From Candidatus Thorarchaeota archaeon (GTDB lineage Archaea > Asgardarchaeota > Thorarchaeia > Thorarchaeales > Thorarchaeaceae): a DNA stretch of 29,011 nt. The DNA lies in contig PRDJ01000022.1 in NCBI GenBank assembly GCA_003345555.1, positions 1-29,011 of the forward strand, in the 5' to 3' direction. The translations under genes were made by a program, and so were the position numbers. The notes below the pieces were generated by a model. It was not told the origin of the DNA. It searched no databases and worked only from the letters and a program-made list of their open reading frames with translations. Position 1 is the stretch's first letter. Every line of letters begins with the position of its first letter. Positions 3,639 through 27,265 of this stretch are shown piece after piece.

Positions 3639-3703
3639 GGACTGAGTATCCCAACCGCCTCATTTATCCGTAGCGCCTACAAATCAAAAACGTGGTGTAG
3701 TGC

Positions 3704-4033: not shown

Positions 4034-4043
4034 GTGATGTAGA

Positions 4044-10117: not shown

Positions 10118-10257
10118 GATGAACCGACCCGGTCCGGGGTTCACAATGGTGCCTTAAATCAGTAACTGGCTGAGCAGTCAGCGTCATCTTCTGACTGGGC
10201 CCCAATGCTCGATTTATTGCCGCTTGGCAACTCTGGAGCCGTCAAGAGCGAAATAGG

Positions 10258-10653: not shown

Positions 10654-10797
10654 TCAATCTGCTTGGCATGCTATTGCCGTGCCTGAGCATATCGTCGTGA
10701 AGAACTCACACCAATAACCCTGAGATTCCTCTACAGATACGCGATTCTCTATCATACTGTTGAGGATCGAGAGGAATTGACACGAAGGCGTCATCAT
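10654..10797 (-). CDS. Small Cys-rich protein, 47 aa, below the ORF-track cutoff
   Basis: Manual translation gives MMTPSCQFLSILNSMIENRVSVEESQGYWCEFFTTICSGTAIACQAD*. The ATG overlaps the thiolase TGA (ATGA coupling) and the ORF fills most of the operon gap. Confidence 0.55.
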   Translation of the reverse strand: MMTPSCQFLSILNSMIENRVSVEESQGYWCEFFTTICSGTAIACQAD

Positions 10798-11957
10798 CTT
10801 CCGAAGATGCAGACTACCATGTTGTTGCCGAAGCCCCCGATATTGTGTGTCAAAGCAAACTCAGGACTCTTGACCTGAAGTCCTGCGGGAGCTTTTCCTC
10901 GGATTTGGAGAGCCACGTCTCGTATCTGTGCGACTCCGGTTGCCCCGGTGGGGTGTCCTCTTGCTTTTAGTCCCCCAGTGGTATTAACCGGTATGCGACC
11001 GCCAATGGCGGTCTCTCCTTGCTTGACTAAATCAATGGCGTGACCGGGCTTCACCAGTCCAACATCCTCCATGTCAATCAGCTCCAGAATCGAGAAAGCG
11101 TCATGTAGTTCACAGACATCGATGTCCTCAGGTCTCAGTCGGGCCATTTTGAATGCTTTTCCAGCAGCAGAAACAGTAGCATTCAGGGATGTGAGACATG
11201 GTCTGTGTTGAACCGCGTGATAGTCCGTAGCATGGCCCACTGCAAGAACCTTCACTGAGTCATCGGTACGACCAAGTGTCTTCGCAGCTTTGGAGGAAGC
11301 AACGATGACCGAAGCTGCACCATCGGAGGTTGGGGAACAATCATAGAGCGTGAGCGGGTCAGCTACCATCTTGGATGCGCTCACTTTCTCAAGAGCGATT
11401 TCTTCCCTGAAGTGCGCGAGCGGGTTCTTTGCTCCATTCTTGTGTGCCTTGACGGGAATGAGAGATAGGTCATCACGCGATAAACCATAATCATGCATGT
11501 ATCTTCGAGCGACAAGTGCCGCTAGGGCCGCGGGTGTTCCGCCTAGCTTTGCCTCGGAGTCAATTGAAATCATCTTGGCCAGAATCTTGGAAGCAGCGCC
11601 TCGATCGATTCCCGACATCTTCTCTACACCGATAACCAGCACAAGCTGGGCCAGCCCAGACTTGACAAGTGCCACTGCCTCCTCAAATGCGCTCGAACCA
11701 GCAGAAGGGCCGGTCTCCACTCTAGTGGCTCCGGCCGGCACAAGGCCGAGATGATCCGTTATCAGTGTAGAAAGATGACCTACTCCCGTGAACTCGTCAG
11801 GATTCTGACTTCCGACGAGGACATAATCGAACTTAGCGTCGAGAGCATTTGAATCTCGGATGGCCTCCAGCGCGGCAGACTTGGCGAGTTCCGTAATAGT
11901 CTCGTCCAGCGTGCCGAATTTTGTCATGCCAACGCCAGTGACATAGACCTGCTCCAA
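10794..11957 (-). CDS. Thiolase-fold protein, SCP2/archaeal type, lacking the canonical nucleophile Cys
   Basis: Motifs VTGVGMTKFG, GVEKM, CSPTSDGAAS, ELHDAF, NTTGGLKARGHPTGATG and THNIGG. The TTG start at 11957 follows GGAGGGA. Confidence 0.92.
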   Translation of the reverse strand: MEQVYVTGVGMTKFGTLDETITELAKSAALEAIRDSNALDAKFDYVLVGSQNPDEFTGVGHLSTLITDHLGLVPAGATRVETGPSAGSSAFEEAVALVKSGLAQLVLVIGVEKMSGIDRGAASKILAKMISIDSEAKLGGTPAALAALVARRYMHDYGLSRDDLSLIPVKAHKNGAKNPLAHFREEIALEKVSASKMVADPLTLYDCSPTSDGAASVIVASSKAAKTLGRTDDSVKVLAVGHATDYHAVQHRPCLTSLNATVSAAGKAFKMARLRPEDIDVCELHDAFSILELIDMEDVGLVKPGHAIDLVKQGETAIGGRIPVNTTGGLKARGHPTGATGVAQIRDVALQIRGKAPAGLQVKSPEFALTHNIGGFGNNMVVCIFGR

Positions 11958-11970
11958 TGGTCTCCCTCCT

Positions 11971-12504
11971 CTACTCAATCAACACAAGCAAATCTCCTAG
12001 TGCCACGACTGAACCTTTCTTGATGTTGACCTCTCTTACTTTGCCGCTTGACGGGGCTTTCAGTTCGTTAAACATCTTCATTGCTTCTAGGATGCACACA
12101 GTCTCCCCTGACCGGACTTCGTCACCGATTTTGACCTTCACTTCGGAAATCCTGCCGGGCATTGGAGGGTAGATACCTCCGCTGACTCTCTTTCCGCTCT
12201 TTGTGGTCGCGCCAGTCTTCTTTGCGTCCTCGTCTCTTCTTACGTGCTCCCAGTCAATCTCACGGGTCTCACCGTCGATTTCCAGAACGACTCTCTTGCC
12301 CGCTCTCTTGACAATCTTGACGTTGTGATGAAGTGAAGCATTGTCTACTGACCACGTTCCATCTTTCTTTAGGGATGGCTTCAGTGTGAAGGACTCATCC
12401 CCAACCTTCACCACCAACGCGCCCTCTTCGCTTGAAGGCCGCACTTCGACCTTGAAGTCCCTACCATCGGATTTGGCGGTATATTCCTCGCTCACCACAT
12501 TCAT
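11971..12504 (-). CDS. Biotin carboxyl carrier protein with an N-terminal beta-rich domain (about 177 aa)
   Basis: Biotinylation motif EAMKM in a C-terminal lipoyl/biotinyl domain (PPMPGRI...GKVREV). The ATG at 12504 overlaps the upstream stop (ATGA). Confidence 0.93.
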   Translation of the reverse strand: MNVVSEEYTAKSDGRDFKVEVRPSSEEGALVVKVGDESFTLKPSLKKDGTWSVDNASLHHNVKIVKRAGKRVVLEIDGETREIDWEHVRRDEDAKKTGATTKSGKRVSGGIYPPMPGRISEVKVKIGDEVRSGETVCILEAMKMFNELKAPSSGKVREVNIKKGSVVALGDLLVLIE

Positions 12505-14081
12505 CCCTGTTCGCGGCTCTTCATCAAATCCTTTCTTCCAGCCGACGCCCAAATAGAGGGGCTTCGCTCCCATCGACCGCGGGCGCTCTGGCCAGTCCTT
12601 CCTGTCACAATCTCCCCGACACCAGCCTCGGCCCATGCGCTGCCCGCTGCAGCACCGGGTTGCTCGAGAGCGGTTTGATGACTGCTCATATGAAGTACTG
12701 CCGCTATAACAGCAATGTCTTGTTCTATGTTGGTCTTGCCCTTTGACTGACTCTCAGATCTCCTCTTGAAGAATTCAAGCGCGTACTGCGGGAACAATGC
12801 GTATGAAACCTCATCTCGCGGGACATGTGGTATGTCTTTCAGTGCCTCACGAGCCTTCGGCAGCTCGGGTTCAAGCAAGTCAGCCGGTCTCACACTGAGG
12901 GGCTTTTCGTCACCTATGATGAGCTTCTTCACCTTGGGGTCGATTGGCGCAGGAGGTCTGCCATAGAACCCACGGACATACTGCTTGACCTCGTTCAGAA
13001 TTACCTTGTACCGTTCCCCCGTTACCACATTCATTGTGGCCTGTGCCCCAACGATTTGGCTTGAGGGAGTGACCAGTGGTGGATAGCCAAGTTCGGCCCT
13101 GACTCGTGGTACCTCCTTCAGAACCTCGTCATACCTGTCCAGTGCACCTTGTTCTCTGAGTTGGTTGTCCAGATTGGACAGCATCCCTCCAGGAATCTGA
13201 AACACCAGCACCTGCGGGTCAACGCCCTGTAAAGCTCCCTCGAACTTGGAGTACTTACCTCGAACCTTCTTGAAGTACTCTGCTATCTCCGCCAGCAGGG
13301 AGACATCTAGCCCTGTATCTCGAGGCGTACCCTTCAGTGCTTCAACAATCGACTCGGTCGGCGGCTGTGAAGTTGCCATTGCCAGAGAAGAGACTGCGCA
13401 GTCGACGACATCCACACCTGCATCCGCGGCTCTTAGGTATGCCATAGAGGCCATCCCGCTCGTGTAGTGTGTATGGAGCTGAACCGGAATGTCAATCTCT
13501 TCCTTCAATCTCGTTATGAGTTCGAAGGCTACTTGAGGGGAGATCAGACCGGCCATGTCTTTTATGCAGATAGAATCTGCGTCCATCGAGTATAGGGTCT
13601 TGGCATCCTCGACGAACTTCTCTATCGTGTGGAACGGGCTCAGCGTGTAACATATTGCCGCCTGAACATGACCGCCTTCGCGCTTCACGAAGCGCATCGC
13701 GGCCTCCATGTTACGAACATCGTTCAGTGCATCAAAAACCCTGAAAATGTCAAGTCCGGCTGTGACCGCCTCGACCACGAAAGCCTCAAGCACGTCATCT
13801 GCATAATTCCTGTAGCCTACAATATTCTGGGCCCGAAGTAACATCTGGAGCTTGGTATGGGGCAACGCGTCACGCAGGAGTTCAAGCCGCTCCCAGGGGT
13901 CTTCATCGAGAAAACGCATCATGGTATCGAAGGTGGCCCCGCCGAACATCTCAAGGGAATGATAACCCACCCTGTCCAGCTTCTCGCAAATGGGGATCAT
14001 GTCCTCTGTTTTCATCCTCGTGGCGAGAAGGGATTGATGAGCATCACGAAGAACGGTATCGGTTATTTCTAGGCGCGTCAT
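12501..14081 (-). CDS. Keto-acid carboxyltransferase (transcarboxylase 5S / oxaloacetate decarboxylase alpha / PycB CT domain), no fused biotin domain
   Basis: Motifs DTVLRDAHQSLLATRM, GGATFD, FRVFDALND, IKDMAGL, HTHYTSG, PGGMLSN and YPPLVTPSSQIVG. There is no MKM motif at the C-terminus. Confidence 0.95.
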   Translation of the reverse strand: MTRLEITDTVLRDAHQSLLATRMKTEDMIPICEKLDRVGYHSLEMFGGATFDTMMRFLDEDPWERLELLRDALPHTKLQMLLRAQNIVGYRNYADDVLEAFVVEAVTAGLDIFRVFDALNDVRNMEAAMRFVKREGGHVQAAICYTLSPFHTIEKFVEDAKTLYSMDADSICIKDMAGLISPQVAFELITRLKEEIDIPVQLHTHYTSGMASMAYLRAADAGVDVVDCAVSSLAMATSQPPTESIVEALKGTPRDTGLDVSLLAEIAEYFKKVRGKYSKFEGALQGVDPQVLVFQIPGGMLSNLDNQLREQGALDRYDEVLKEVPRVRAELGYPPLVTPSSQIVGAQATMNVVTGERYKVILNEVKQYVRGFYGRPPAPIDPKVKKLIIGDEKPLSVRPADLLEPELPKAREALKDIPHVPRDEVSYALFPQYALEFFKRRSESQSKGKTNIEQDIAVIAAVLHMSSHQTALEQPGAAAGSAWAEAGVGEIVTGRTGQSARGRWERSPSIWASAGRKDLMKSREQG

Positions 14082-14248
14082 GGTCAGCTGCTCCGAAGAA
14101 ACGTGCTCTATTTAGTCGTTCTGCTCGCACACACTGAGGGTGCGACAGAGTGGATGTCAATGGCTGCCGTCTTATATGTGACTGAAAAGCTAGGGAACTC
14201 CCCACAGAACCTAAACGCTATGTTTGAGCGTTCTGCCTTCTGGAAGAG

Positions 14249-14286
14249 AGAGGGCTCCGGTTAATCGAGTTGCGCCCGGAGCCTCT
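14249..14286. terminator. Stem-loop just downstream of the large surface-protein gene
   Basis: AGAG(G)GCTCCGG ... CCGGAGCCTCT, 10 bp beyond the stop at 14296. Confidence 0.4.
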
Positions 14287-14295
14287 TTGAAATGT

Positions 14296-17200
14296 CTACT
14301 TGAACTTCGTTGTCAGGTCACGAGGTTCGTATGGCTTTGCGCCCTTCCTTCCCCTGAAAACGGCCAACAAGGCGACTGCAAGGATAATCCCAGCAACAAC
14401 GTATCCGTTCATGAGGAAATTGAGGATGGCGGTGATGATATTCCCGGTTGGCGATGTGGAGGTTGTAGGTTGTGTGACCATAACCCACACAGTGTCTGTG
14501 ACTGCGTTGCCAGAGCTATCCCTCAAGGTGATCGTGTAGTTATACGCACCTGCACTCAAACCGTCAACATTGATCGTAATGACCTGTGACGGGTTTGTCC
14601 AAGCTGGTGCAGTGACCGGAGTGCCGTTTCTCAGAAGCTGTACTGTGCCGGGAGCTAGGTCATAGACGGTCCAAGAGAGTGTGTGACCAGTAGTGTTGGT
14701 TTCATACTCGAGATCGATAGGCGTCTGAGTCCAGACTGGTGACGTAGTATCCTCCACTGTGACAGTGAAGACTGCGGTCTGTGTGTTACCAAGAGTGTCA
14801 TTGACGTTCACTCGCAGTGCATAAGCTCCAACGGCCAGAGAAGTCTTGTTTGTAATCACGCCGGAGCCATCAACTGCGAAATGCACAGTATCGTTGATCC
14901 ACCAGGTACTGATGCTTGAGAAGTCAGTCGCATTGAGGTCATATCTAAGGCCCTTGCCCAACTCAATGATTTGGTCCGCTGGTGTCTGATCCCAAGTAGG
15001 TGCTGCACTGGGCTGCACTGTGATTTTGAAGGTGCTTGACAGAGTGTTTCCTTGTGTGTCATTCGCATATACCTGCAGCCAATATACACTGGCTGCCAAC
15101 ACAGTCGAGTTTGTGATAACGCCGTCTGCACTGATTGTGAAGTGTGTAGTGTCATTCACCCAATAATGATCGATGCCTGAAAGATCGGTCGCGTTGAGGT
15201 CATACCTGAAGCTGGAGCCTTCCTCAAACTCTTGGTCGACTGGAGCCTGCAACCAAGTAGGCGCAATAGTATCCTGCACAGTGACTTTGAAGGTCGCTGT
15301 CTGCACGTTACCTAGTCTGTCAGTAACATTCACCGTCAGTACGTAGACTTGGACCGACAGGGGGACTATGTTTGTGATGACACCTGCACTATCGATTACG
15401 AAGTTCGTTGTGTCGTTAATCCACCAGCTGCCAATACCCGAGAAGTCAGTGGCATTCAGGTCATATCTGAAGTTGTTGCCAAATTCAATGACTTGGTCAG
15501 TTGGTACTTGGCTCCACGTAGGTGGTGCACTGGGCTGCACTGTGACAGTGAAGTTGGCACTAATGGTGTTGCTCAGGTTGTTGGTGACATTGACCATCAA
15601 TGGATAAGTTCCAACCGCAAGACCAGTCTTGTTTGTGACAACTCCATTTGAATCGATGTCGAAGTTGGTTGTGTCATTCAGCCACCAGCTAGCAATGCCT
15701 GATGGGTGTGAAGCATTCAAATGATACCTGAAAGCATCTCCGAACTCGATTGTTTGGTCCGTGGGAACTTGGTCCCATACCGGCATGCTAGTGTCGCGCG
15801 AATTGATCCGGAATGTTCCTGAGAGCACTAATCCATGATTGTCAGTAACGTCAACCCGGATTCCGTACACCCTTATAGAAAGGGAGGAGATGTTCGTTAT
15901 TATGCCAGAAGAATCAATCTGGAAATTGACCGTATCATTGATCCACCAACCAAAAATGCCGGATACGTCTGAAGCATTGAGGTCGTATCTGAACGGGTTC
16001 CGAAAGTCTGTCTCTTGATCAACAGGAACTTGGTCCCACGCTGGAGGTATTGTGTCTTGGACAATCACGTTGAATGTGCCTATCAGCGGGATGCCCTCGC
16101 CATCGTATACGTGGACTTCCAGACCATAGACACCGACTGCCAATGAGACCGTGTTCGTGATTACACCCGCACCATCGATTACGAAGTTCGTAGTGTCGTT
16201 TATCCACCAACTATCGATGCCTGAAAGATCGGTGGCATTAAGGTCATACCTAAACGAGCTGCCGAATTCAATCGTCTGGTCAACTGGGACCTGCACCCAA
16301 GAAGGTGGTGTGGTGTCTCGTACTGTCACCGTGAAGGTTCCAGTGAGTACATTGCCATTAACGTCCGTTGCGTTGACCCTGACAGGGTATGGCCCCACCG
16401 AGATGAATGTCGCGTTCCTGACGATACCGTCGATATCAATACTGAAGTGTTCTGTATCGTTTATCCACCAAGATACAGTTCCTGAGAGATCCGTCGCGTT
16501 CAAGTCGTATCTGAACGCCGTACCAAGCTCCGTTATCTGGTCAACTGGTACCTGAACCCACGCAGGGTCAACCGTGTCAAGGACAGCTAGCTTGAAGGTT
16601 CCACTAAGAATATTGCCTTGGCCATCGGTTGCATTCACTCTAACGTGATAGACTCCGACTGCGATGTTTGTTGCATTTCTGACTATCCCGTTGCCATCGA
16701 CAGCGAAATGTGCCGTGTCGTTGACCCACCAGCCCGCAATCCCGGACAGGTCAGTGGCGTTCAAGTCGTATCGGAAGACGGTACCGAGCTCGATTGTCTG
16801 GTCAACGGGGACCTCCACCCACATGGGGGCGGTTGTGTCGCGCACCGTCACTTTGAAAGTCCCGCTTAGAGTATTGCCATAGCCATCAGTTGCATTTACC
16901 CTGATGCCGTGAACACCAACCACAAGATTCGTAGCATTTCTGATAATACCGCTCCCATCTATTGAGAATCGACCTGTGTCATTTATCCACCACGTCACTC
17001 CCGAGAGGTCAGTTGCGTTCAAGTCATACCTGAAGGCAGTACCAAACTCGATTGTCTGATCAACCGGTGCCTGAACCCAAGCAGGAGGCTTGGTATCCCG
17101 AACAGTAACTCTGAAAGTCGCGCTGAGGATATTGCTGTGACTGTCAGTTGCATTCACTCTAAGACCGTATACGCCCACAGCAAGATTGGTGGCGTTTCTG

Positions 17201-19323
17201 ATAATACCGCTGCTGTCAATTGAGAATCGACCAGTGTCATTCATCCACCACGTGACTCCTGACGGATCGCTGGCGTTCAAGTCGTATCTGAAGGCAACAC
17301 CAAACTCTGCAGCTTGATCGACAGGAGTCTGGTCCCAAGTAGGAGGCAGTGTGTCCCCAACCATAACCTTGAAGGTGGCACTTAGAATGTTGCCATGACT
17401 ATCTGTTGCATTCACTCTGAGACCGTATACGCCGAAAGCGAGATTGGTCGCGTTTCTGACGATGCCGCTACTGTCGATTGAGAATTGAACGGTGTCGTTA
17501 ATCCACCACGTCACTCCTGAGAGGTCGGTTGCATTCAAGTCGTATCTCAAGGCAGCACCGACTTCAATCGTCTGGTCAACAGGAGTTTGAACCCATGCGG
17601 GGGGTGTCGTATCCTGAACAGCGACCTTGAAAGTCGCACTGAGGATGTTGCTGTGACCGTCAGTTGCATTCACCCTGACGCCATAGACCCCGACAGCAAG
17701 ATTCGTGGCATTTCTGATAACGCCGTTCCCGTCAATTGAGAACCGGACAGTGTCATTTATCCACCATGTCACTCCTGACAAATCGGTTGCATTCAGGTCG
17801 TACCGGAATGAGGTACCAAACTCGACCGTCTGATCAATAGGAGTCTGAACCCATGAGGGTGGCGTCGTATCCTGAACGGTCACCTTGAATGTCGCACTTC
17901 GAACGTTGCTGTAACTATCAGTTGCATTCACCCTAACACCATACACACCAACAGCAAGATTCGTCGCGTTTCTGATAACACCGCTCCCGTCAATTGAGAA
18001 TCGGACGGTATCGTTTATCCACCACGTGATTCCCGACAAGTCGGTCGCATTCAAATCGTACCTGAAGGAAGCGCCAAACTCGAGTGTCTGATCAACAGGT
18101 GACTGAACCCATGAGGGCGGCGTTGTATCTTGAACGGTGACCTTGAAGGTGGCGCTGAGGATATTACCATGGCCATCAGTCGCATTCACTCTTAGACCGT
18201 ATAAACCGACTGGAACATTGGTGGCATTTATGATAATACCACTGCCGTCAATCGAGAAGCGAACAGTGTCATTTACCCACCATGTGACTCCTGAGAGGTC
18301 AGTTGCATTAAGATCGTATCTGAAGGCAGTGCCAAGCTCGACTGTCTGGTCAACTGGTGTCTGAACCCAGGTAGGAGGCGTGGTGTCCTGAACGGTCACC
18401 TTGAAAGTCGCGCTGAGGATATTGCCATAACTGTCAGTTGCATTCACTCTCAGACCGTACACACCAACAGCAAGATTGGTGGCATTTCTGATGATGCCGC
18501 TCCCATCAATTGAGAAGCGAACAGTGTCATTCACCCACCATGTGATTGTTGACAGGTCGGTCGCGTTCAAATCGTATCTGAAGGAACTGCCGAATTCGAC
18601 TGTCTGATCGAGAGGTGCTTGAACCCACGTGGGAGGTGTCGTGTCTTGAACGGTTACCTTGAAGGTGCCGGATAGGGTGTGGCTGGCGTTGTCACTTACG
18701 TTGACTCTTATACCGTACGTACCTACAGGCAACGTCGACTTGTCTGTGATGATTCCGCTTGTGTCAATCTGGAATCTTGTGGTGTCGTTAATCCACCAGC
18801 CCGAAATACCCGAAAAGTCTGAAGCATTCAAATCATACCTAAATGAGCTGCCGTACTCGATCGTCTGGTCTACTGGCACTTGGTCCCAGGTCGGAGGAGC
18901 GCCCGCGATGACAGTGACAAATACTGTGTCCTTGGACTCATTCAGGAATGTATTCGTGACCGTGACCGTGTGGTTGTATACTCCCGGACTCAGACCGTCA
19001 ACGCTGAAGGGATAGGTGCCGTTCGTCGTCCAGCTTGTCGAACCCACAGTCGTTCCGTTACCATCTACTCTGTAATCATTTGGATTGCTGGAATTGAACA
19101 TCCAATTAATGGTGTTTCCAGTTGCATCTTGTTCATAACTGAAATCGGGAGGCGAATTGACGATAGGCGGAACACCTTCAGCAACCACGAACACAGCGTC
19201 AAGTTGTGGTTCAACAGTGTTCGTTGTCGGTTGCAGGGGAGTAACAGCCGAACCACGTAGCAGAGCTAACGAAAGCAATACACAGACAACTACCAGCGTT
19301 CCCTTCGACGCATTCATTCTCAT
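14296..19323 (-). CDS. Large cell-surface glycoprotein / adhesin-like protein (signal peptide, 16 tandem cadherin/Ig-like repeats, C-terminal TM anchor)
   Basis: 1675 aa, with a hydrophobic N-terminus (TLVVVCVLLSLALL), repeats rich in N-x-T sequons, a Thr/Pro linker, a TM helix (YVVAGIILAVALLAVF) and a basic tail (RGRKGAK). Confidence 0.92.
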   Translation of the reverse strand: MRMNASKGTLVVVCVLLSLALLRGSAVTPLQPTTNTVEPQLDAVFVVAEGVPPIVNSPPDFSYEQDATGNTINWMFNSSNPNDYRVDGNGTTVGSTSWTTNGTYPFSVDGLSPGVYNHTVTVTNTFLNESKDTVFVTVIAGAPPTWDQVPVDQTIEYGSSFRYDLNASDFSGISGWWINDTTRFQIDTSGIITDKSTLPVGTYGIRVNVSDNASHTLSGTFKVTVQDTTPPTWVQAPLDQTVEFGSSFRYDLNATDLSTITWWVNDTVRFSIDGSGIIRNATNLAVGVYGLRVNATDSYGNILSATFKVTVQDTTPPTWVQTPVDQTVELGTAFRYDLNATDLSGVTWWVNDTVRFSIDGSGIIINATNVPVGLYGLRVNATDGHGNILSATFKVTVQDTTPPSWVQSPVDQTLEFGASFRYDLNATDLSGITWWINDTVRFSIDGSGVIRNATNLAVGVYGVRVNATDSYSNVRSATFKVTVQDTTPPSWVQTPIDQTVEFGTSFRYDLNATDLSGVTWWINDTVRFSIDGNGVIRNATNLAVGVYGVRVNATDGHSNILSATFKVAVQDTTPPAWVQTPVDQTIEVGAALRYDLNATDLSGVTWWINDTVQFSIDSSGIVRNATNLAFGVYGLRVNATDSHGNILSATFKVMVGDTLPPTWDQTPVDQAAEFGVAFRYDLNASDPSGVTWWMNDTGRFSIDSSGIIRNATNLAVGVYGLRVNATDSHSNILSATFRVTVRDTKPPAWVQAPVDQTIEFGTAFRYDLNATDLSGVTWWINDTGRFSIDGSGIIRNATNLVVGVHGIRVNATDGYGNTLSGTFKVTVRDTTAPMWVEVPVDQTIELGTVFRYDLNATDLSGIAGWWVNDTAHFAVDGNGIVRNATNIAVGVYHVRVNATDGQGNILSGTFKLAVLDTVDPAWVQVPVDQITELGTAFRYDLNATDLSGTVSWWINDTEHFSIDIDGIVRNATFISVGPYPVRVNATDVNGNVLTGTFTVTVRDTTPPSWVQVPVDQTIEFGSSFRYDLNATDLSGIDSWWINDTTNFVIDGAGVITNTVSLAVGVYGLEVHVYDGEGIPLIGTFNVIVQDTIPPAWDQVPVDQETDFRNPFRYDLNASDVSGIFGWWINDTVNFQIDSSGIITNISSLSIRVYGIRVDVTDNHGLVLSGTFRINSRDTSMPVWDQVPTDQTIEFGDAFRYHLNASHPSGIASWWLNDTTNFDIDSNGVVTNKTGLAVGTYPLMVNVTNNLSNTISANFTVTVQPSAPPTWSQVPTDQVIEFGNNFRYDLNATDFSGIGSWWINDTTNFVIDSAGVITNIVPLSVQVYVLTVNVTDRLGNVQTATFKVTVQDTIAPTWLQAPVDQEFEEGSSFRYDLNATDLSGIDHYWVNDTTHFTISADGVITNSTVLAASVYWLQVYANDTQGNTLSSTFKITVQPSAAPTWDQTPADQIIELGKGLRYDLNATDFSSISTWWINDTVHFAVDGSGVITNKTSLAVGAYALRVNVNDTLGNTQTAVFTVTVEDTTSPVWTQTPIDLEYETNTTGHTLSWTVYDLAPGTVQLLRNGTPVTAPAWTNPSQVITINVDGLSAGAYNYTITLRDSSGNAVTDTVWVMVTQPTTSTSPTGNIITAILNFLMNGYVVAGIILAVALLAVFRGRKGAKPYEPRDLTTKFK
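14752..18906 (-). repeat. Intragenic tandem array of 16 units of 258 or 261 bp (86/87 aa)
   Basis: Unit starts at 18906, 18645, 18387, 18129, 17871, 17613, 17355, 17097, 16839, 16578, 16317, 16056, 15795, 15534, 15273 and 15012. Consensus DTTPPxWxQxPVDQTxEFGxxFRYDLNATDLSG...WWINDT..F.ID..G.I.N.T.L.VG.Y..RVNATD..GN.LS.TF.VTV. Confidence 0.95.
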
Positions 19324-19392
19324 TCACCTTGTGCATACGGTATCGCGTAAACCAAAACGTAAGATTCCACGGGCCCTTCGATCATGGAATTC

Positions 19393-19450
19393 GTACCTAA
19401 CGCAGACTACTGCGCCTCTAGGTACAATCCTTTTAGGATTTAACTTAAAG
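19393..19450 (-). promoter_or_regulatory. Putative promoter, palindromic operator and leader hairpin of the large surface-protein gene
   Basis: AT-rich TATA-like tract (minus strand TTTAAGTTAAAT) adjoining the palindrome AATCCT-ttt-AGGATT (19426-19440), and nested inverted repeats GTACCTA/TAGGTAC and CGCAG/CTGCG (19393-19425). Confidence 0.35.
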
Positions 19451-19548
19451 TCGTATATACACAGCGGGCACATGTCTGTTTTCAGAATGCAACAAGGCCG
19501 CTGAGAACAGGACTCGGGAGACAGATCGACTACTTACGATGCTGGCGG

Positions 19549-20022
19549 CTATATTGAGGCACCGCAGTTGGTGCATTTTCTCGTGCCGGCGTCATTCCTC
19601 TGTCCACAGTGAGGACAAATCACAAGCACTACTTCTTTGACTGTGGTTACTCTGAAAGAGGCATCGACAGCCTGAACTGGAGCCTCAACTGGGCGGCCAG
19701 GAGCCTGAGCCTTTCGCTTCGCGACTGCGCGAATCACAGTCTCACCTTCGCTCCTGGAACAGGTGTACTTGTATTGGCCGTTGAAAGTCTCTATTACGAG
19801 CTGTATGCCCAGGAAAGCTGGTTCAATCCTGACTTCCCGAATCTCTCCGAGTTTGATCGAGTGTACGAGACCCTTCGGCCTCACGAAGAACACTCTTCTG
19901 TCAGTTACGACGAGGTCTCCGCTTGACCCACCGAACTTGCAGTTCAGTCTGAGGTCAGCGACCTCATCCGGGAATAGTCCACTCGTTGCCAAGCTATTCA
20001 CAACCAGAAGGAATGCTGACAT
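19549..20022 (-). CDS. PH-like domain + C-terminal double zinc-ribbon protein
   Basis: GDLVVTDRRVFF (bPH-like strand) and CPHCG...CTNCG. Confidence 0.8.
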   Translation of the reverse strand: MSAFLLVVNSLATSGLFPDEVADLRLNCKFGGSSGDLVVTDRRVFFVRPKGLVHSIKLGEIREVRIEPAFLGIQLVIETFNGQYKYTCSRSEGETVIRAVAKRKAQAPGRPVEAPVQAVDASFRVTTVKEVVLVICPHCGQRNDAGTRKCTNCGASI

Positions 20023-20199
20023 TCTTTAGTAATAACTCTTGCTTGCTCGGATTCCAATAAGACGCATTGCCCTCTTCGAGGACCAACCATTCAGCGAGGA
20101 TGTAATGCATACGAGCGGGACATTGGATTCTGGGGGTTGTCTTTGAACTGGCTTCCTTTCGTGAGTCAACTGTGACCTCTGTCAGCTGAGCGCACTTCA

Positions 20200-21366
20200 T
20201 CATATGAAGCTCTGCAGCAATCTATCAATCACGGAATCCATGTTCTCGCCTCTGATGTCATTGGCTAGGCAGATCTGTTCGACTCGAAAGACGCGATTAG
20301 TATCCATGAGGTCTTTCAAGCCCGAAAAGACTCCAAGCCGTCGGCCAATACGATAAAGATCCTGTTTCGCCGGCTCCATGCCTAGAAATGCATCAAGAAT
20401 CTCAAGCATTGCATCTCTGTCTTGTGGCATCTTTCCCTCAAGGTCACCAAACAGATTCAGTACGTGATCGCTCTTGACGACGCTCTTGATTCCATGAAGG
20501 TTCTGAATGAGTGTCTTGATCTCATTCACAATCATTATGTCCGAGCAAACGTGAAACCTACGGGACATGCGTTCTGCTCCCAGAGGTGCCCTGTCAGTAA
20601 CCGCCAATGTTCGGAGTCGTATGAAGTCCGGGTCTATCTGATTGAGGGCATCTGCGGTTTCGAGAGCATGCTCTGCAGACAGTTCCGTGCCACCTAAACC
20701 GGGCATCGCATATTCTGATAGCTCTATGCCCGCATTCTTGACCTTCAGCCCTGCCCTGATGTGCATTTCCTTAGATGCACCCTTCTTCACCATTTTCAGG
20801 ACCTTGTCCGAGCCAGATTCGAGACCTACATGTATCCTGTTCAGTCCCGCGTCGCGCATGGCTTCTAGATCCTCATCAGCGATCCGGACTAGGGTACTCG
20901 ACCGACTGTACGACGTAACGCGTTCGACCCAGGGAAACCTCTCCTTGAGATGACGCAGAAGCTCAATCAGATTTGATGGCTGAGAGGCAAGAGCATCCGA
21001 ATCCTGTAGGAACACACTTTTCATGCCGTTCATGAACCAATAGAAGGCGGCATTGAATGCCACTAGACCGTCTGCACTGACCGTGTTGGCGATTGCCTTT
21101 AGTCCAGGTTCTGTGACTGAGGATGGCTCGTTGAAAGCTTCTCGAAGGCACTTCATGTTTTTGTAGATGAGGTCAATGTCCCGCAGGACATGTTCTAGAG
21201 GCCGTATGGAAAACGAAGACCCTTTGTATACTGGACAGAACGTACAACGATTCCAGGCACAATTGCGCGTCACACGTATCAGCAGGCTATCGGCTTCGCT
21301 TGGCGGTCTTATCGGACCCATTTCGTATCCGTAATAGCTATCAGGACATGCGGATTCTTGCGTCAA
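20200..21366 (-). CDS. Radical SAM protein (COG1032-like, GPIRPPSE subgroup)
   Basis: GPIRPPSE...TRNCAWNRCTFC (CX4CX2C), FLQD, GLNRIHVGLESGSD and MPGLGG. Confidence 0.92.
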   Translation of the reverse strand: MTQESACPDSYYGYEMGPIRPPSEADSLLIRVTRNCAWNRCTFCPVYKGSSFSIRPLEHVLRDIDLIYKNMKCLREAFNEPSSVTEPGLKAIANTVSADGLVAFNAAFYWFMNGMKSVFLQDSDALASQPSNLIELLRHLKERFPWVERVTSYSRSSTLVRIADEDLEAMRDAGLNRIHVGLESGSDKVLKMVKKGASKEMHIRAGLKVKNAGIELSEYAMPGLGGTELSAEHALETADALNQIDPDFIRLRTLAVTDRAPLGAERMSRRFHVCSDIMIVNEIKTLIQNLHGIKSVVKSDHVLNLFGDLEGKMPQDRDAMLEILDAFLGMEPAKQDLYRIGRRLGVFSGLKDLMDTNRVFRVEQICLANDIRGENMDSVIDRLLQSFI

Positions 21367-21617
21367 CTCGCGGCCTCGGTATTCTCAACTCGGATGACTG
21401 TTGACTTTCCACGTGTCGTACAGAAAAAAGGGTTAGCAAGTAGGCGAATCCAGGCCTGAAGCTGAGGACATCTCAGCACGGTGTACAAGCCATGCTGATT
21501 GCGCAATCCACGAGCCAGCATTTGCTTTTTCTCGTGTTAACCAAAAATCGTCAAGGTCATACGGTCTACTGCAAATACGACTCCTTAGCCATCCCGCTGG
21601 GGCAATAACTGGCGTCC

Positions 21618-21630
21618 CGAAAGATTATAT
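21618..21630 (+). promoter_or_regulatory. Archaeal BRE + TATA-like promoter of the second surface-protein gene
   Basis: CGAAAG-ATTATAT about 140 bp upstream of the TTG at 21771, with GGAGGT SD before the start. A similar CGGAAAG-ATTATTT occurs at 26436-26449. Confidence 0.45.
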
Positions 21631-21770
21631 CATAATATGTATGAAGGACCGCCCATCACGCACCAAATCCGCCTCGTCCCCTGAGCACTGAGCTTGAGCA
21701 GAGAAGCCCAAGGCCCCCACCTTTTCGTGTTGAGCAGGATTCAGCACGGTTCAATGGAGGTATCTGAGCG

Positions 21771-24644
21771 TTGCGCAGGATTTCAGAGTCGGCTGCAGTT
21801 TTGATCGTGGTGGCAGCCTTGTTCCTTGGGCTTCAGTACGCGGCGTCCGTGACGCCCCAACGATGCCAAGACAACATGTTGAGGGCTGTGATTCCCGAGA
21901 CGCCCGCTTATGTTGCGCCTGGAGAGGACTCTATTCCACCCGAGACAACAGCGACAGCGTACGGACAGGCAGGACTTGACAATTGGTATGAATCAACTGT
22001 GACGGTCAGTCTAACAGCCGCTGACAATGGGACTGGCGTCTCCGAAACGGAGTACTCCTTCGACAATTACACATGGACCGACTACGAACAGCCTCTGAAC
22101 ATGACTTCCGAGGGGACTTTCATTGTCTACTACCATTCGAGTGACTTGGCTGGCAATAGCGAACCAGTGAAGTTCGTGACGATTCAAATCGATATGACAG
22201 CTCCCGTAACAACACTAAGCCTTGAGGGCTTCATCGGCTTCACAGGGTGGTACTTTACAACTGTCACGTTAACACTGTCCACTGTCGACGCGGTCTCAGG
22301 CGTCGCATATACGCAGTACAGCCTTGGTGACGGTGACTGGGTCAATTACAGTGGACCGTTTGTGATTTCTCAAGATGGGGTGCACAAGTTGTCATTCATG
22401 TCCGCAGACTTGGCCGGTAATATGGAGGGTATTCAGACCACAAGTCTGCAGATTGACAGAAAGGCGCCCACAACAATCGACAGTCTAAGTGGAAAACTCG
22501 GTTCGCTCGACTGGTATGGTTCTGACGTAACTCTGGTCCTGGCGGCCAGTGATGGGGCATCGGGAGTCGCCGATACGGAGTACAATATCGATGGCATAGG
22601 CTGGACATCTTACAGCTATCCAATCACGATTTCTGGAACAGGAGTGCACACGATACAATTCTGGTCTGTGGACGTTGCAGGGAATGCAGAAGAAACGAGG
22701 ACTATTCTAGTTAAGATAGATATGACACCTCCTGTGACGTCAGCACAAATCGAAGGCAGCAAGCTACCTACCGGATGGTATATGTCAAGTGTAACAGTGA
22801 CCCTATCAGCCATTGATGAGACTTCGAACATAGCCTATAGTGAATACACCATCGATGGCAGTGCATGGATCCTGTATACAGGGCCGATTACATTCGTAAA
22901 CGATGGAAGATATGAGATAGGATTCAAGTCTGCGGACTTGGCAGGCAATGTCGAGAACCCTCAGTCGGTGACAATCGTTATTGATAGGACCCCACCAACC
23001 ACCATCGCCGTGCCGGACGGGACTTCGGGACTGAACGGCTGGTACACTTCTCCCGTCATCGTGACACTGGTGGCCTCTGACAACGGCTCAGGGGTAGCAG
23101 ACACTGAGTATAGCTTTGATGGAATTGCGTGGACATCATACTTCGAACCCATCAGATTCTTCGGTGATGGGACATTCACTATCTACTTCTACTCGTCCGA
23201 TAATGCGTACAATACCGAGGAAACAAAGACTGTCACTATCCTTATCGACCAGACCGCACCTGTAACCACTGCGGACGTGCATGGGACCGAAGGACAGAAT
23301 GGCTGGTACATTTCGGACGTTGTCGTCACACTCACATCTGTCGACAGTGGATCAGGCATTGCACGAGTCACCTACTCCTTGGATGGTCTGACATGGACCG
23401 ATTACAAGGAGCCAATCGTCATTATTCAGGAAGGCATCTGGAACATTGCTTTCTACGCCTACGACAACGCAGGTAACAGAGAACCTTCAGAGTCAATTAC
23501 TGTACTCGTGGATAAGTCCGCGCCAGTGACAACTGCTACTCCGCAAGGTAGTCCTGGGTTAAACAGCTGGTATGTTTCCGAAGTTACTGTCGTTCTCACA
23601 GCTATTGACTTGACGTCCAATACGTTCTACACTGAATACAGCTTTGACGGCAACTCCTGGTTTACCTACATGGAACCCATCGTTGTAGGAACTGAGGGGA
23701 CGACTGTTCTCGAGTATCGGTCGGTGGACTATGCTGGCAACACGGAGACTCCCAGTCAGTTGAGCATCTCTATTGACATGACTCCTCCCACTACAGACAT
23801 CGATATGGAATTGTACTACTCCACCGGGATGATCGTCCTGACTGCAACCGATTCGGTGTCAGGCGTGGCTCACACATACTACAGGATAGATGGAGTCAAT
23901 TGGGTCGAATACACTGGACCCTTCCAGTTCAGCGTAACGGCCGGCTTCAACGTGATTGAATACTACAGCGTTGACAACGCGGGCAACACGGAAGCGCCTA
24001 AGTCGACTTCCGTTCTGCCGACTGAGGTTGAAGTCAGTTCGTTCGTTTCTCACTATCCGTATCCGCCATGCGAGAACGAACCCTTGACGTCTCTAAACGT
24101 ATACTTCGTCAAGCACGGACGGACCGGCTACATGCTGATCACGAGGGCATACTACTTCTGGTACAACATCGAGATCACTAATCTGATGCCTACCAGCATT
24201 GGCAATCTGAGCATCACTCCTAAGTTGCCTGCCGAGTTCCTGATGCGGGGGCTTGCCGTCTGGGTTGAGACCTCATCGGGGCACAGAACACTTGCGTACA
24301 TGTACCTCAACACAACCCATAGACATCCGATAATCGTGTGCCCTGGAAGAATGCACCCGGTCTCTATCTCGTACGACGGCCATCAAATCACAATCGCCAG
24401 AATGGCCCCTGAAGGTAGAGTGTGGGTGACAATTGCCATGGAGTACTCACTGAGGAATACATTCTTCAGATCGCCTCAGGACTTCACTACCGAGAGCTAC
24501 ACATTTAGCACAGGCGTCCAAGCATTGGGAACCTACGACTCGTTCTGTGTTCTCCCCGTCGTGAACCATGGTGTGAAGAGCCATTGTATGACTCACTGCT
24601 TCTGGGAGGCTTGGATCGAGATAGCTCACAGGCATCGCTGCTGA
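21771..24644 (+). CDS. Secreted/surface protein with 8 Ig-like (OmpL47-type-like) repeats and an uncharacterised C-terminal domain
   Basis: 957 aa with a signal-like N-terminus (AAVLIVVAALFLGL), repeats DxTxPxT...GWY.S.V.V.L.A.D..SGV..TEYS.DG..W..Y..P......G...I.Y.S.D.AGN.E, and no C-terminal TM helix. Confidence 0.9.
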   Translation: MRRISESAAVLIVVAALFLGLQYAASVTPQRCQDNMLRAVIPETPAYVAPGEDSIPPETTATAYGQAGLDNWYESTVTVSLTAADNGTGVSETEYSFDNYTWTDYEQPLNMTSEGTFIVYYHSSDLAGNSEPVKFVTIQIDMTAPVTTLSLEGFIGFTGWYFTTVTLTLSTVDAVSGVAYTQYSLGDGDWVNYSGPFVISQDGVHKLSFMSADLAGNMEGIQTTSLQIDRKAPTTIDSLSGKLGSLDWYGSDVTLVLAASDGASGVADTEYNIDGIGWTSYSYPITISGTGVHTIQFWSVDVAGNAEETRTILVKIDMTPPVTSAQIEGSKLPTGWYMSSVTVTLSAIDETSNIAYSEYTIDGSAWILYTGPITFVNDGRYEIGFKSADLAGNVENPQSVTIVIDRTPPTTIAVPDGTSGLNGWYTSPVIVTLVASDNGSGVADTEYSFDGIAWTSYFEPIRFFGDGTFTIYFYSSDNAYNTEETKTVTILIDQTAPVTTADVHGTEGQNGWYISDVVVTLTSVDSGSGIARVTYSLDGLTWTDYKEPIVIIQEGIWNIAFYAYDNAGNREPSESITVLVDKSAPVTTATPQGSPGLNSWYVSEVTVVLTAIDLTSNTFYTEYSFDGNSWFTYMEPIVVGTEGTTVLEYRSVDYAGNTETPSQLSISIDMTPPTTDIDMELYYSTGMIVLTATDSVSGVAHTYYRIDGVNWVEYTGPFQFSVTAGFNVIEYYSVDNAGNTEAPKSTSVLPTEVEVSSFVSHYPYPPCENEPLTSLNVYFVKHGRTGYMLITRAYYFWYNIEITNLMPTSIGNLSITPKLPAEFLMRGLAVWVETSSGHRTLAYMYLNTTHRHPIIVCPGRMHPVSISYDGHQITIARMAPEGRVWVTIAMEYSLRNTFFRSPQDFTTESYTFSTGVQALGTYDSFCVLPVVNHGVKSHCMTHCFWEAWIEIAHRHRC
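21927..24014 (+). repeat. Seven 264-bp (88-aa) units plus one shortened eighth unit
   Basis: Unit 1 starts at GAC 21927 and unit 8 at GAC 23775 (7 x 264 bp). The units are divergent and recognisable mainly at protein level. Confidence 0.9.
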
Positions 24645-24712
24645 GGCCAGTGGTTCAGAAGGACGAAACCAGTTGATTATGCGGAAGCATGTGGAAGAAT
24701 ATCATTCGTTAT

Positions 24713-24738
24713 TGTGAGCCGGACTCAACCTGCTCACA
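24713..24738. terminator. Stem-loop immediately downstream of the carboxyltransferase stop, between convergent genes
   Basis: TGTGAGC-cggactcaacct-GCTCACA. Confidence 0.45.
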
Positions 24739-24741
24739 TGG

Positions 24742-26289
24742 TTACAACGGTATGTTGCCATGTTTCTTCGGGGGTCTGCTCTGCCTCTTGCTAGCTAGCA
24801 TCTCTAGTCCTTTGCATATGAGCGGTCGCGTCTCATGCGGGAAGATTACCTTGTCAATGTACCCAAGCTCTGCAGCAATGTACGGGTTAGCGAACTTGTC
24901 CCTGTATTCCTTGACGAGTTCGATACGTCGCTTCTCCTTGTTCTTCGCCTCGTCGATTTCCTTGCGAAATATGATGTTGATGGCACCGTCTGGACCCATA
25001 ACAGCTATTTCTGAAGTGGGCCACGCATAGACTAGGTCTGCACCGATATGCTTGCTGCTCATCACGTCGTATGCGCCGCCATAGGCCTTGCGAGTGATGA
25101 TCGTAATCTTGGGAACTGTTGCTTCACTGAAGGCGTAGAGGATTTTGGCCCCGTGTCGGATTATGCCGCCCCACTCCTGTGTGGTCCCCGGGAGATAACC
25201 TGGCACATCCATGAACGTAATGATAGGAATGTTGAATGCATCACAAAACCTGACGAAACGAGAGCACTTGTCCGAGGCATCGATGTCAATTGTACCAGCT
25301 AAGTGAGCTGGCTGGTTGCCGACGATTCCCACCGAACGTCCGTCGAAACGAGCAAAGCCAACTATCATGTTCTTGGCCCAGTGCTCGTGGACCTCGAAGA
25401 ACTCACCGTTGTCGACTACCTTGGTTACGACATCACGCATGTCGTAAGGCTTGTTGGGGTCATCCGGCACTACTTCATCGACAGATGAATCTACGTTGTC
25501 AGGGGCGTGGCCAGTATTCACGCGAGGAGGCTCCTCAAGATTGTTGCTTGGCATATAGCTCAGAAGCTTGCGTATCTGGCCAATGCATTCGTCCTCATTT
25601 TCACTGGCAAAGCTGGCGACGCCTGAAATTGAATTGTGGGTCATTGCGCCGCCCAGCTCCTCTTGTGTGACTTCCTCACCCGTGACTGTCTTGATAACGT
25701 CAGGCCCTGTGATGAACATGTATGAACTGTTCTTGACCATTAGCGTGAAATCAGTGACCGCGGGGCTATAGACAGCTCCACCTGCACATGGACCCATAAT
25801 CGCTGAAATCTGAGGGATTACTCCACTGGCAATTGTGTTTCGATAGAAAATCCACGCATAGCTTGCCAGTGCCTTGACGCCCTCTTGGACTCTCGCACCT
25901 GCGCCATCGTTCAACCCTATGACCGCCGCGCCCGTCTCCATCGCAAGATCCATGACCTTGCAGATTTTCAGACCATACATCTCAGACAAGGAACCACCGA
26001 AGACCGTGAAGTCTTGGCTGAAGATGTACACCTTTCTCCCGTCGATAGTACCATAGCCTGTAACTACGCCATCGCCAAGTATCTTCTTCTTCTCCATGCC
26101 GAAGTCGGTGCAACGGTGTGCCACGAATTCGTCAAGCTCTACGAAAGACCCTGCATCAAGCAGCTTCTCGATCCTTTCACGCGCCGTATACTTACCGGCC
26201 TCATGTTGCTTCGTGATTCGCTCTTCGCCGCCGCCGAGCTTGGATTCGTCGCGTTTCTTCCGAAGTTGCTCAAACCTGTCATCTGGCAT
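24742..26289 (-). CDS. Acyl-CoA carboxyltransferase beta subunit (PccB / MmdA / transcarboxylase 12S type)
   Basis: Motifs [70 protein letters not shown] and [14 protein letters not shown] 26289 follows AGGTGA (the ORF track starts at GTG 26301). Confidence 0.96.
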
Positions 26290-26401
26290 GGAATGTCTCA
26301 CCTAATGTGCTCTAAAGACGTACTAGCTTGGCATATGGAGTTGGTTTTGAACATTCTGGCTGAACTCCGGAGAGACGAATGATGAATAGATATCGCCGCT
26401 T

Positions 26402-27265
26402 GTGGAGGAACCGTATAGTACGAGCATTATCGGAACGGAAAGATTATTTGGTATCTATACTTGGTTCACGAGAGGGGCGGAACCAACGACTGAGTGCTCA
26501 GACGAGTCACCTGCTGGAGAAGAGAGGAGCACTCGGAACGATGATTTTCCATCGCTGGTCTTGTTGGCCTTGGCGGTTCTTTTCACTTGGTTTGTCTTGG
26601 CGCCTATTCTCTACTGGTTGCTTGTTGCACCTTTCATTCTTTCACTGTTGGGAGCACAGATTCACCAACCTCTGAATATCAGCAGAATAGCACTCTTGTT
26701 GGCAGTCCTCGCGCTCGCAGCTCCCAGTGTCTGCATATACCTGAATGGTATGCTCACATTCTTTGGTGCCTTCGGTGAGTTCGCCGTTCTCTTGGCTACC
26801 GGCTATGTCTATGTGCAGAGCATCTCGCAAGTCGTAATCATTGCATATGCGTTCATGGTTTTCCCTCAGCTAGTTTTCACAGGGCAGCTTTGGAGATACT
26901 ACCGAGGCACTACCACGAGGGAGAACACGACTCTATCTGGAATCATATGCTTTGCTTCGGTATGCGTGCTATTCGCGCTTCCGTACGTGCTAAATGGGCC
27001 GTCTTGGTTCGGTGTAGTCATCCCGCTCACATTAGCTCCTATAATAGGTGCTATTGTTTGGAGATGCTACAAAGGCACCTCAACAAGAAGGGCCAAGACT
27101 CTATTTGGAATCATATGTTTAGTTTCATCATGTGTGCTATTCGCGACTGTGTATCTGCTGAGTATAATGCCTTGGTTTAGTGTACTCATCCCACTTCCGT
27201 TAGCTCTTATCATAGGTCTATTCATCTTGTGGCAGTTTCCACCTCAGCATTCTCCAACCAAGTGA
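26402..27265 (+). CDS. Hypothetical polytopic membrane protein, paralog 1 (true start uncertain)
   Basis: Multiple hydrophobic helices, a 56-aa internal duplication, and codon-conserved homology to paralog 2. Confidence 0.8.
   Translation: MEEPYSTSIIGTERLFGIYTWFTRGAEPTTECSDESPAGEERSTRNDDFPSLVLLALAVLFTWFVLAPILYWLLVAPFILSLLGAQIHQPLNISRIALLLAVLALAAPSVCIYLNGMLTFFGAFGEFAVLLATGYVYVQSISQVVIIAYAFMVFPQLVFTGQLWRYYRGTTTRENTTLSGIICFASVCVLFALPYVLNGPSWFGVVIPLTLAPIIGAIVWRCYKGTSTRRAKTLFGIICLVSSCVLFATVYLLSIMPWFSVLIPLPLALIIGLFILWQFPPQHSPTK

Follow-up and report, generated by a model that had tools for sequence, protein, structure and literature searches.

Three genes on the minus strand of contig PRDJ01000022.1, from a Candidatus Thorarchaeota archaeon of the class Thorarchaeia (assembly GCA_003345555.1), probably specify the subunits of a single biotin transcarboxylase, independent of ATP and resembling the methylmalonyl-CoA:pyruvate carboxytransferase (EC 2.1.3.1). 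The whole contig, 29,011 nucleotides read on its forward strand, is called the window in what follows. The three products are an acyl-CoA carboxyltransferase, an oxo-acid carboxyltransferase devoid of a biotin domain, and a free biotin carrier; the first two are designated 12S and 5S after the corresponding subunits of the Propionibacterium enzyme. A preliminary description of the window, made from its letters alone, had placed the three genes on the minus strand and read them as a transcarboxylase working without ATP. Domain searches and the overlap of the 5S and carrier genes in an ATGA confirmed the three genes and their positions. The proposed activity is now supported by the domains and active-site motifs of the proteins, by the observation that they are the sole biotin-enzyme parts of the genome, by the absence of alternative partners throughout the class, by operon linkage, and by pathway partners that include a methylmalonyl-CoA mutase operon. 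The three genes and their parts, all on the minus strand, are as follows.

24742-26289, minus strand: 12S/PccB/MmdA-type acyl-CoA carboxyltransferase, 515 aa, with a Carboxyl_trans domain
12501-14081, minus strand: 5S/OadA/PycB-type oxo-acid carboxyltransferase, whole gene, 526 aa
12720-14081, minus strand: catalytic part of the 5S-type protein, residues 1-454 (Pfam HMGL-like and PYC_OADA)
12504-12719, minus strand: C-terminal tail of the 5S-type protein, residues 455-526, delimited by a conserved segment and motifs; putative docking module
11971-12504, minus strand: biotin carrier, whole gene, 177 aa
12241-12492, minus strand: BT-type eight-stranded beta-barrel of the carrier, residues 5-88 (predicted fold)
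11971-12192, minus strand: biotinyl domain of the carrier, residues 105-177, stop codon included (Pfam Biotin_lipoyl, 66.6 bits)
12076-12078, minus strand: codon of the biotin-accepting Lys143 within the motif EAMKM

The 5S-Type Carboxyltransferase and Its Tail

The 5S-type protein contained only HMGL-like and PYC_OADA domains in Pfam searches, and a biotinyl domain was absent. The nearest NCBIfam models were those of the PycB domain (NF006761, 747 bits) and of OadA, and public annotation names the Thorarchaeal proteins of this type PycB or OadA. The solved relatives were PycB (5ks8, 548 bits), OadA (2nx9, 506 bits) and the 5S subunit of P. shermanii (1rqb, 468 bits). The motifs LRDAHQS, KDMAG and LHTH aligned with the same motifs in these three structures and showed no variation across 32 orthologues; judging from these residues, the active site looks intact.

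Beyond the catalytic part, the protein ended in a tail of about 70 residues, made of an A-x-IAAVLHM segment followed by two W-x-x-AGR motifs. In the orthologue alignment the residues A457, W483, W504, S509, W511, G515 and R516 were invariant, and L463 and H464 were kept at a level of at least 90%. The tail gave no Pfam match even at E = 10, a feature search of the ESM Atlas returned no usable match, and nothing in the solved PycB, OadA or 5S chains aligned with it. The IAAVLHM segment may resemble the C-terminus of OadG.

The reading frame of the carrier is open for 44 codons further upstream, and for this reason a single PycB/OadA gene split by a frameshift into the 5S and carrier genes was considered. 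This was rejected because the two-gene form and the tail are conserved: more than 100 Thorarchaeota protein clusters share the 5S form of approximately 526 aa without a biotin domain. By descent, the 5S-type protein and the carrier look like a PycB/OadA-type chain split behind its catalytic part.

The Biotin Carrier

The ATG of the carrier gene, at position 12504, overlaps the stop codon of the 5S gene (ATGA), an arrangement of translational coupling. The sequence EAMKMFNELK around the biotin-accepting lysine was identical in 31 carrier orthologues. The structure of the biotinyl domain matched those of MmdC from P. horikoshii (2d5d, Z 14.1) and of the 1.3S subunit of P. shermanii (1dd2, Z 12.9), and the region from the linker to the biotinyl domain aligned with the C-terminus of PycB.

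A fold search with the whole carrier gave matches to biotinyl domains only, and the N-terminal barrel was therefore modelled alone with AlphaFold2 (AF2; pLDDT 86). The best Foldseek matches of this model were the BT domains of human PCC alpha, yeast ACC and MCC alpha, with a TM of 0.76 and a root-mean-square deviation (rmsd) of 2.7 over 89 columns for human PCC alpha (7ybu_A). The VIA-align comparison with 5csa_B gave a Z of 8.8 and an rmsd of 2.4 over 83 residues, the next match being at Z 5.3. The two Pfam BT models both stayed below threshold on the barrel (E = 0.003 for BT_MCC_alpha and E = 0.05 for the other). According to the predicted fold, the N-terminal half of the carrier would be a BT-type barrel located just before the biotinyl domain. 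BT domains link the subunit bearing the biotin carboxylase to a PccB-type core, and consist of an eight-stranded antiparallel barrel normally wrapped round a helix. The carrier itself contains no helix of this kind.

A profile search with the barrel found 21 matches among 1.84 billion representatives, and the good ones were all short and carrier-sized. Stand-alone carriers of 160-176 aa with the same two-domain build were present in the ESM Atlas, mainly in Acidobacteriota and Deferribacterota, their predicted structures matching with a TM of 0.74-0.78 over 82-88 residues; they showed no detectable sequence relation to the Thorarchaeal barrel. As such look-alikes exist in several bacterial phyla, the design of a carrier with a BT barrel is not unique.

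The 12S-Type Carboxyltransferase

The open reading frame (ORF) of the 12S-type protein, 24742-26301, reaches a GTG at position 26301 (519 aa), and the ATG at 26289 fits the consensus of the orthologue starts better. The Carboxyl_trans match scored 671 bits, the nearest NCBIfam models were MmdA and PccB, and among solved relatives the PccB chains 1vrg and 6ybp (705-725 bits) came before the 12S of P. shermanii (1on3, 600 bits). By descent, this is an ordinary PccB-type protein. Its Asp412 (GGAYD412VM) aligned with D407 in the beta subunit of the propionyl-CoA carboxylase of Methylorubrum (M. extorquens), a position reported to have been engineered to change the substrate.

The 12S orthologue in the nearest relative, the genome G023 of the same genus (contig C4, 48830-50246), was interrupted by three in-frame TGA codons and a change of frame near position 49953. 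This may be either a sequencing error or a decaying copy.

Absence of Biotin Carboxylase and Decarboxylase Pump

The genome assembly to which the window belongs comprises 2.28 Mb in 82 contigs and is 93.5% complete. It was searched with Pfam and NCBIfam models (PF02785 and TIGR00514 for biotin carboxylase, PF03977 for OadB, PF04277 for OadG), and neither biotin carboxylase nor OadB nor OadG was found in it. The preliminary statement that the window holds no biotin carboxylase and no OadB thus extends to the whole genome. Exactly one Carboxyl_trans protein, one PYC_OADA protein and one clear biotinyl carrier were present; a second, weak match to PF00364 (25.9 bits) lay in a 137-aa frame on contig C26. 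Two look-alikes of accC, at about 15 bits on contigs C75 and C27, were rejected, being RimK-like and Ter-type ATP-grasp ligases.

Since any one metagenome-assembled genome (MAG) may lack a gene, the same questions were put to all 87 species genomes of the class, with a completeness of 52-99% and including two single-contig genomes. Biotin carboxylase was found in none of the 87. OadB was matched in two of them, by a fragment of 61 aa in one and at 19 bits in the other; a credible OadB was found in 0/87. The biotin carboxylase models detected the enzyme in 32 of 111 sampled Asgard genomes from outside the class, all of them outside the Thor family, which indicates that the search works in this phylum. 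A biotin carboxylase or an OadB working with this carrier from elsewhere in the genome had been named beforehand as an observation that would refute a transcarboxylase, and the answer is negative as far as genomes can give it.

By the established mechanism of biotin enzymes, either carboxyltransferase completes only half of the biotin cycle, and its biotin has to be recycled by a second half-reaction. With neither a biotin carboxylase nor a decarboxylase beta subunit encoded, the only closed cycle is that of the 12S and 5S-type proteins acting on one carrier.

It is quite improbable that the carrier is served by a partner invisible to these searches, either a divergent or non-homologous ATP-dependent carboxylase or an unrecognised membrane subunit. 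Such a partner would agree with the similarity of the 5S-type protein to PycB and OadA and with its public annotation under these names, and also with the presence of the barrel, as BT domains join the alpha subunits containing the biotin carboxylase to the carboxyltransferase subunits in PCC, MCC and ACC. The class-wide counts argue in the opposite direction, the single-contig genomes being no exception and the models performing well in controls and in other Asgard families. The only ATP-grasp look-alikes were the two ligases mentioned above, and we know of no analogous replacement for biotin carboxylase.

Gene Order and Co-Occurrence in the Class

The 5S-type gene was detected in 70 of the 87 genomes of the class (23 of the 24 high-quality ones), a full-length carrier in 69 and a 12S-type gene in 72. 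Whenever a contig bore both the carrier and the 5S gene, the two were neighbours. A tight order 12S-5S-carrier-thiolase-like gene existed in four genomes of one genus (g16), two of which were aligned; the successive gaps in this run were 16, 2 and 14 nt at L012. In about 30 further genomes, the 12S gene lay upstream of the 5S gene on the same contig and strand, at a distance of less than 1 kb to 26 kb. The overall 12S-5S distance among relatives ranged from 16 nt to 1 Mb. BirA was found in 42 of the 47 good genomes surveyed for it, typically 0.7-6 kb upstream of the 12S gene and on the same strand, and the succession BirA-12S-5S-carrier is a conserved neighbourhood in the relatives.

The scattered distances would also be expected if the parts did not form one enzyme, the 12S on one side and the 5S/carrier pair on the other being left over from an ancestral carboxylase or decarboxylase, independent of each other or in decay, and having little or no function today. 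Some good genomes indeed possess only one of 12S and 5S, and the 12S copy of G023 carries the in-frame TGA codons described above. We consider this explanation very improbable. The proteins are under strong purifying selection, with identities across the class of 78-87% for 12S, 68-88% for 5S and 51-70% for the carrier, and the catalytic motifs are invariant. The genes keep their order and strand among relatives, and one genus has them in a tight operon. DNA of this archaeon turned up repeatedly in wetland metagenomes, and contigs from two wetland RNA libraries matched stretches of the genes for the 5S-type protein and the acyl-CoA dehydrogenase. These contigs cannot show transcription, as DNA carry-over is possible, and they were not used as evidence of expression; the match to the 5S gene is a weak hint against decay.

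Pathway Partners

Contig C14 carries an operon for a B12-binding small subunit, MeaB, the methylmalonyl-CoA mutase large subunit and the epimerase. The large subunit contains RQYSGF and KEYIARG, of which the Tyr and Arg bind the substrate carboxylate in methylmalonyl-CoA mutases, and on this basis it is assigned to the true methylmalonyl-CoA type. Both succinyl-CoA ligase subunits are encoded on contig C15. On contig C2, a FumC/AspA-like lyase gene (3306-4697) adjoins the genes for FrdA and FrdB, the flavoprotein and iron-sulfur subunits of a succinate dehydrogenase/fumarate reductase; the lyase passes the cut-off of the aspartate ammonia-lyase subfamily and fails that of fumarase. Of the genes which the preliminary description had proposed to look for in the genome, those of the mutase and epimerase were thus found together in one operon, accC/pycA and oadB/mmdB were absent, and birA was missing from this assembly.

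A second acyl-CoA mutase gene, cut by the contig end, was observed on contig C68 (34500-35390, L002), with the motifs RQFAGM, KEYMAQ and AFHLPT. Having Phe and Gln at the specificity sites, the protein is isobutyryl-CoA-mutase-like. Its AFHLPT motif shows a His where the family usually has an Asp.

Weighing the Assignment

Several observations weigh against the assignment to a transcarboxylase of the Propionibacterium kind. The scores on the named equivalogs were insufficient: the 12S-type protein reached 880 bits on TIGR01117 (mmdA), for a cut-off of 998.8, and the 5S-type protein 560 on the 5S model NF008984, for a cut-off of 827. The latter protein stands further from the Propionibacterium 5S than from PycB and OadA; it is of 5S type by its architecture, and not an orthologue of the Propionibacterium subunit. 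The 12S gene of the window lies 10.6 kb upstream of the 5S gene on the same strand, although the tight order and common strand in relatives indicate that this separation is secondary. Among the 87 genomes of the class, 61 had both 12S and 5S, nine had 5S only, 11 had 12S only and six had neither. The 12S, 5S and carrier genes are each common in the class, and the pairing of 12S with 5S is only loosely positive; given the completeness of the MAGs, the counts are compatible with co-inheritance and are not strong when taken alone.

BirA was the next difficulty, as TIGR00121 matched nothing in the assembly. Both proteins with a PF03099 (BPL_LplA_LipB) domain were rejected as candidates, being lipoate-ligase-like (contig C44, 1072-1881; contig C1, L010, 850-2007), and so was the fragment at the end of the window (28659-29009), which is cupin-like. 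The window is collinear with the genome G023 of the same genus, in which BirA is located about 9 kb past the point matching the end of the present contig. In view of this synteny, the lack of BirA probably results from a break in the assembly.

A malate dehydrogenase of the LDH/MDH family (PF02866) was found neither in this genome nor in any of the 41 class genomes with a completeness of at least 90%, and an Ldh_2-type enzyme was not found in this genome. The arm from oxaloacetate to fumarate in the Wood-Werkman cycle is consequently unaccounted for in the whole class, and the classic cycle is not closed. As the lyase on contig C2 passes the aspartase cut-off, a route through aspartate is conceivable. 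Finally, an archaeal enzyme of this sort is not known from biochemical work.

The scores below the equivalog cut-offs raise the question of the substrates, as do the genes which follow the carrier gene on the minus strand.

10794-11978, minus strand: thiolase-like protein without the nucleophilic Cys (ETGPSAG), directly 3' of the carrier gene
10258-10602, minus strand: DUF35/ChsH2-type OB-fold protein (Pfam/NCBIfam)
8954-10144, minus strand: acyl-CoA dehydrogenase (Pfam/NCBIfam)

The thiolase-like protein carries a Pro where a thiolase has its nucleophilic Cys (ETGPSAG, compared to EAACASG in the thiolase 7yvy), a replacement kept in three relatives, and its gene directly follows that of the carrier in relatives too. 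Together with the DUF35 protein and the acyl-CoA dehydrogenase, it forms a set that resembles the Ltp2-ChsH2-type aldolases rather than a thiolase. The same three-subunit transcarboxylase might act on other substrates: its 12S side could carboxylate acetyl-CoA or a different acyl-CoA, short or branched, its 5S side could use 2-oxoglutarate/oxalosuccinate, or it could serve compounds of a pathway made of the thiolase-like protein, the DUF35 protein and the acyl-CoA dehydrogenase. The missed cut-offs, the constant position of the Cys-less thiolase-like gene with the other two genes behind it in the window, and the second, isobutyryl-CoA-mutase-like mutase would all suit this explanation, which we nevertheless hold to be unlikely. 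Judged by score, the 12S-type protein has a similarity of 60-65% to bona fide PccB and 12S proteins, and it retains D412; the active-site motifs of the 5S-type protein equal those of the pyruvate and oxaloacetate enzymes, and the genome possesses a true mutase-epimerase operon.

Proposed Mechanism

We propose the following scheme for the methylmalonyl-CoA:pyruvate transcarboxylase, in which the substrates, the physical complex, the direction of flux and the mode of assembly are all inferred. Carboxyl transfer between (S)-methylmalonyl-CoA/propionyl-CoA and the carrier's biotin would fall to the 12S-type protein, and that between carboxybiotin and pyruvate/oxaloacetate to the 5S-type protein. 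In this way the enzyme would tie pyruvate and oxaloacetate to the metabolism of propionyl-CoA and succinyl-CoA. It could serve to form propionate, or to consume without ATP the propionyl-CoA arising from the breakdown of amino acids and acyl-CoAs. The transcarboxylase of Propionibacterium is reversible, and the flux may therefore run either way here. The acyl-CoA genes in the neighbourhood would fit an ATP-free carboxylation of propionyl-CoA as well as the formation of propionate.

Regarding the assembly, the BT-type barrel of the carrier may dock on the PccB-like 12S core as the BT domain does in propionyl-CoA carboxylase. The tail of the 5S-type protein would tie this protein to the carrier and might contribute the helix around which BT domains normally wrap. 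In a complex prediction of the 12S with residues 440-526 of the 5S and the carrier, the ipSAE of the 12S was 0.00 in two runs made without controls, a result which speaks neither way.

A more specific reading, to be taken as a whole and to which we give a rather low probability, is that of a distinct transcarboxylase built on the plan of propionyl-CoA carboxylase. The free carrier, with its BT barrel and biotinyl domain, would then sit on a PccB-like hexamer. The 5S-type protein may in this case replace the biotin carboxylase, held by its tail, which would complete the BT domain in trans. A propionate/propionyl-CoA cycle without malate dehydrogenase, common to the class, could be closed via aspartate by an aminotransferase and the aspartase-like lyase, and fed by the thiolase-like/DUF35 pair.

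Relation to Known Systems

The transcarboxylase of P. freudenreichii subsp. shermanii is a close functional counterpart. As in the present case, it associates an acyl-CoA carboxyltransferase of the PccB fold, a biotin-less TIM-barrel oxo-acid carboxyltransferase and a small carrier, needs no biotin carboxylase, and shares the active-site motifs. The Thorarchaeal 5S-type protein differs by its proximity to PycB/OadA and by the additional conserved tail of about 70 residues. The carrier differs by its length of 177 aa and its predicted BT-type barrel of 84 residues, whereas the 1.3S subunit has 123 residues, with an ordered biotinyl domain at 47-123 and about 46 residues before it. The Thorarchaeal 12S, with 515-519 aa, is like PccB in this respect, and the genes are dispersed in this genome.

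As compared to propionyl-CoA carboxylase (PccA/PccB; 3n6r, 7ybu), the 12S-type protein is a close homologue of PccB (about 690 bits), and the carrier would correspond by its predicted fold to the BT part and the biotin carboxyl carrier protein (BCCP) part of PccA. No biotin carboxylase domain or gene exists here, and the 5S-type protein presumably takes its place as the second active site. In sequence, the 5S catalytic part comes closest to PycB (5ks8) and OadA (2nx9). Both of these include a biotinyl domain within the one chain and depend on PycA or OadB/OadG, whereas the carrier is separate here and those partners are absent, as they are throughout the class.

A transcarboxylase had already been proposed for Asgard archaea. 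Imachi et al. 2020 (PMC7015854; Fig. 4b, Supplementary Figs 16-18) inferred an Asgard methylmalonyl-CoA transcarboxylase and a propionate metabolism by transcarboxylation, from a gene set annotated as the methylmalonyl-CoA decarboxylase alpha subunit, the biotin carrier, pyruvate carboxylase B and the biotin ligase. Both the gene set and the reading are the same as here; that work was a comparative-genomic inference without anatomy of the enzyme. The present analysis adds the class-wide absence of biotin carboxylase, OadB and malate dehydrogenase, the operon form, the predicted BT-type domain of the carrier and the 5S tail. Beyond PMC7015854, the literature search found no transcarboxylase carrier with a BT domain and no treatment specific to Thorarchaeota.

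If the transcarboxylase assignment is correct, the annotations "pyruvate carboxylase subunit B", "oxaloacetate decarboxylase" and "propionyl-CoA carboxylase / methylmalonyl-CoA decarboxylase" give wrong energetics: no ATP would be spent on carboxylation and no sodium pumped, the carboxyl group being freely exchanged between C3/C4 acids and C3/C4 acyl-CoAs. This bears on the models of how propionate is made or used, and how energy is conserved, in the Asgard fermenters of sediments, the closest relatives of eukaryotes. The value of the analysis lies in a firmer genomic case, in the correction concerning BirA, in the class-wide malate dehydrogenase gap, for which the published pathway does not account, and in a testable hypothesis on the BT carrier and the 5S tail.

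Other Genes of the Window

Three ORFs, all on the plus strand, were without a Pfam or NCBIfam match: 7101-8876 (591 aa), 26402-27265 (287 aa) and 27586-28233 (215 aa). The segment 2733-6992 contains a gene for an FAA-hydrolase-family protein on the minus strand, beside an isopropylmalate/tartrate/homoisocitrate-dehydrogenase-like gene and the genes for the large and small subunits of an aconitase-family dehydratase, these on the plus strand; all of them scored below the equivalog cut-offs, and they presumably act on some 2-oxo-acid chain. A PFL-like glycyl-radical enzyme (PFL-like and Gly_radical domains) is encoded at 1-1998 on the plus strand and runs off the contig start. The remaining features lie between the 5S and 12S genes.

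14296-24644, both strands: insert between the 5S and 12S genes, not part of the enzyme, encoding two Ig-repeat proteins, a zinc-ribbon protein and a radical-SAM protein
14296-19323, minus strand: Ig-repeat surface protein 1 (He_PIG, Big_13, PKD-like)
21771-24644, plus strand: Ig-repeat surface protein 2 (He_PIG, Big_13, PKD-like)

In one wetland DNA run, the contigs skipped 1053 nt inside the larger Ig-repeat gene, from position 15993 to position 17047, which suggests strain variation in the number of repeats.

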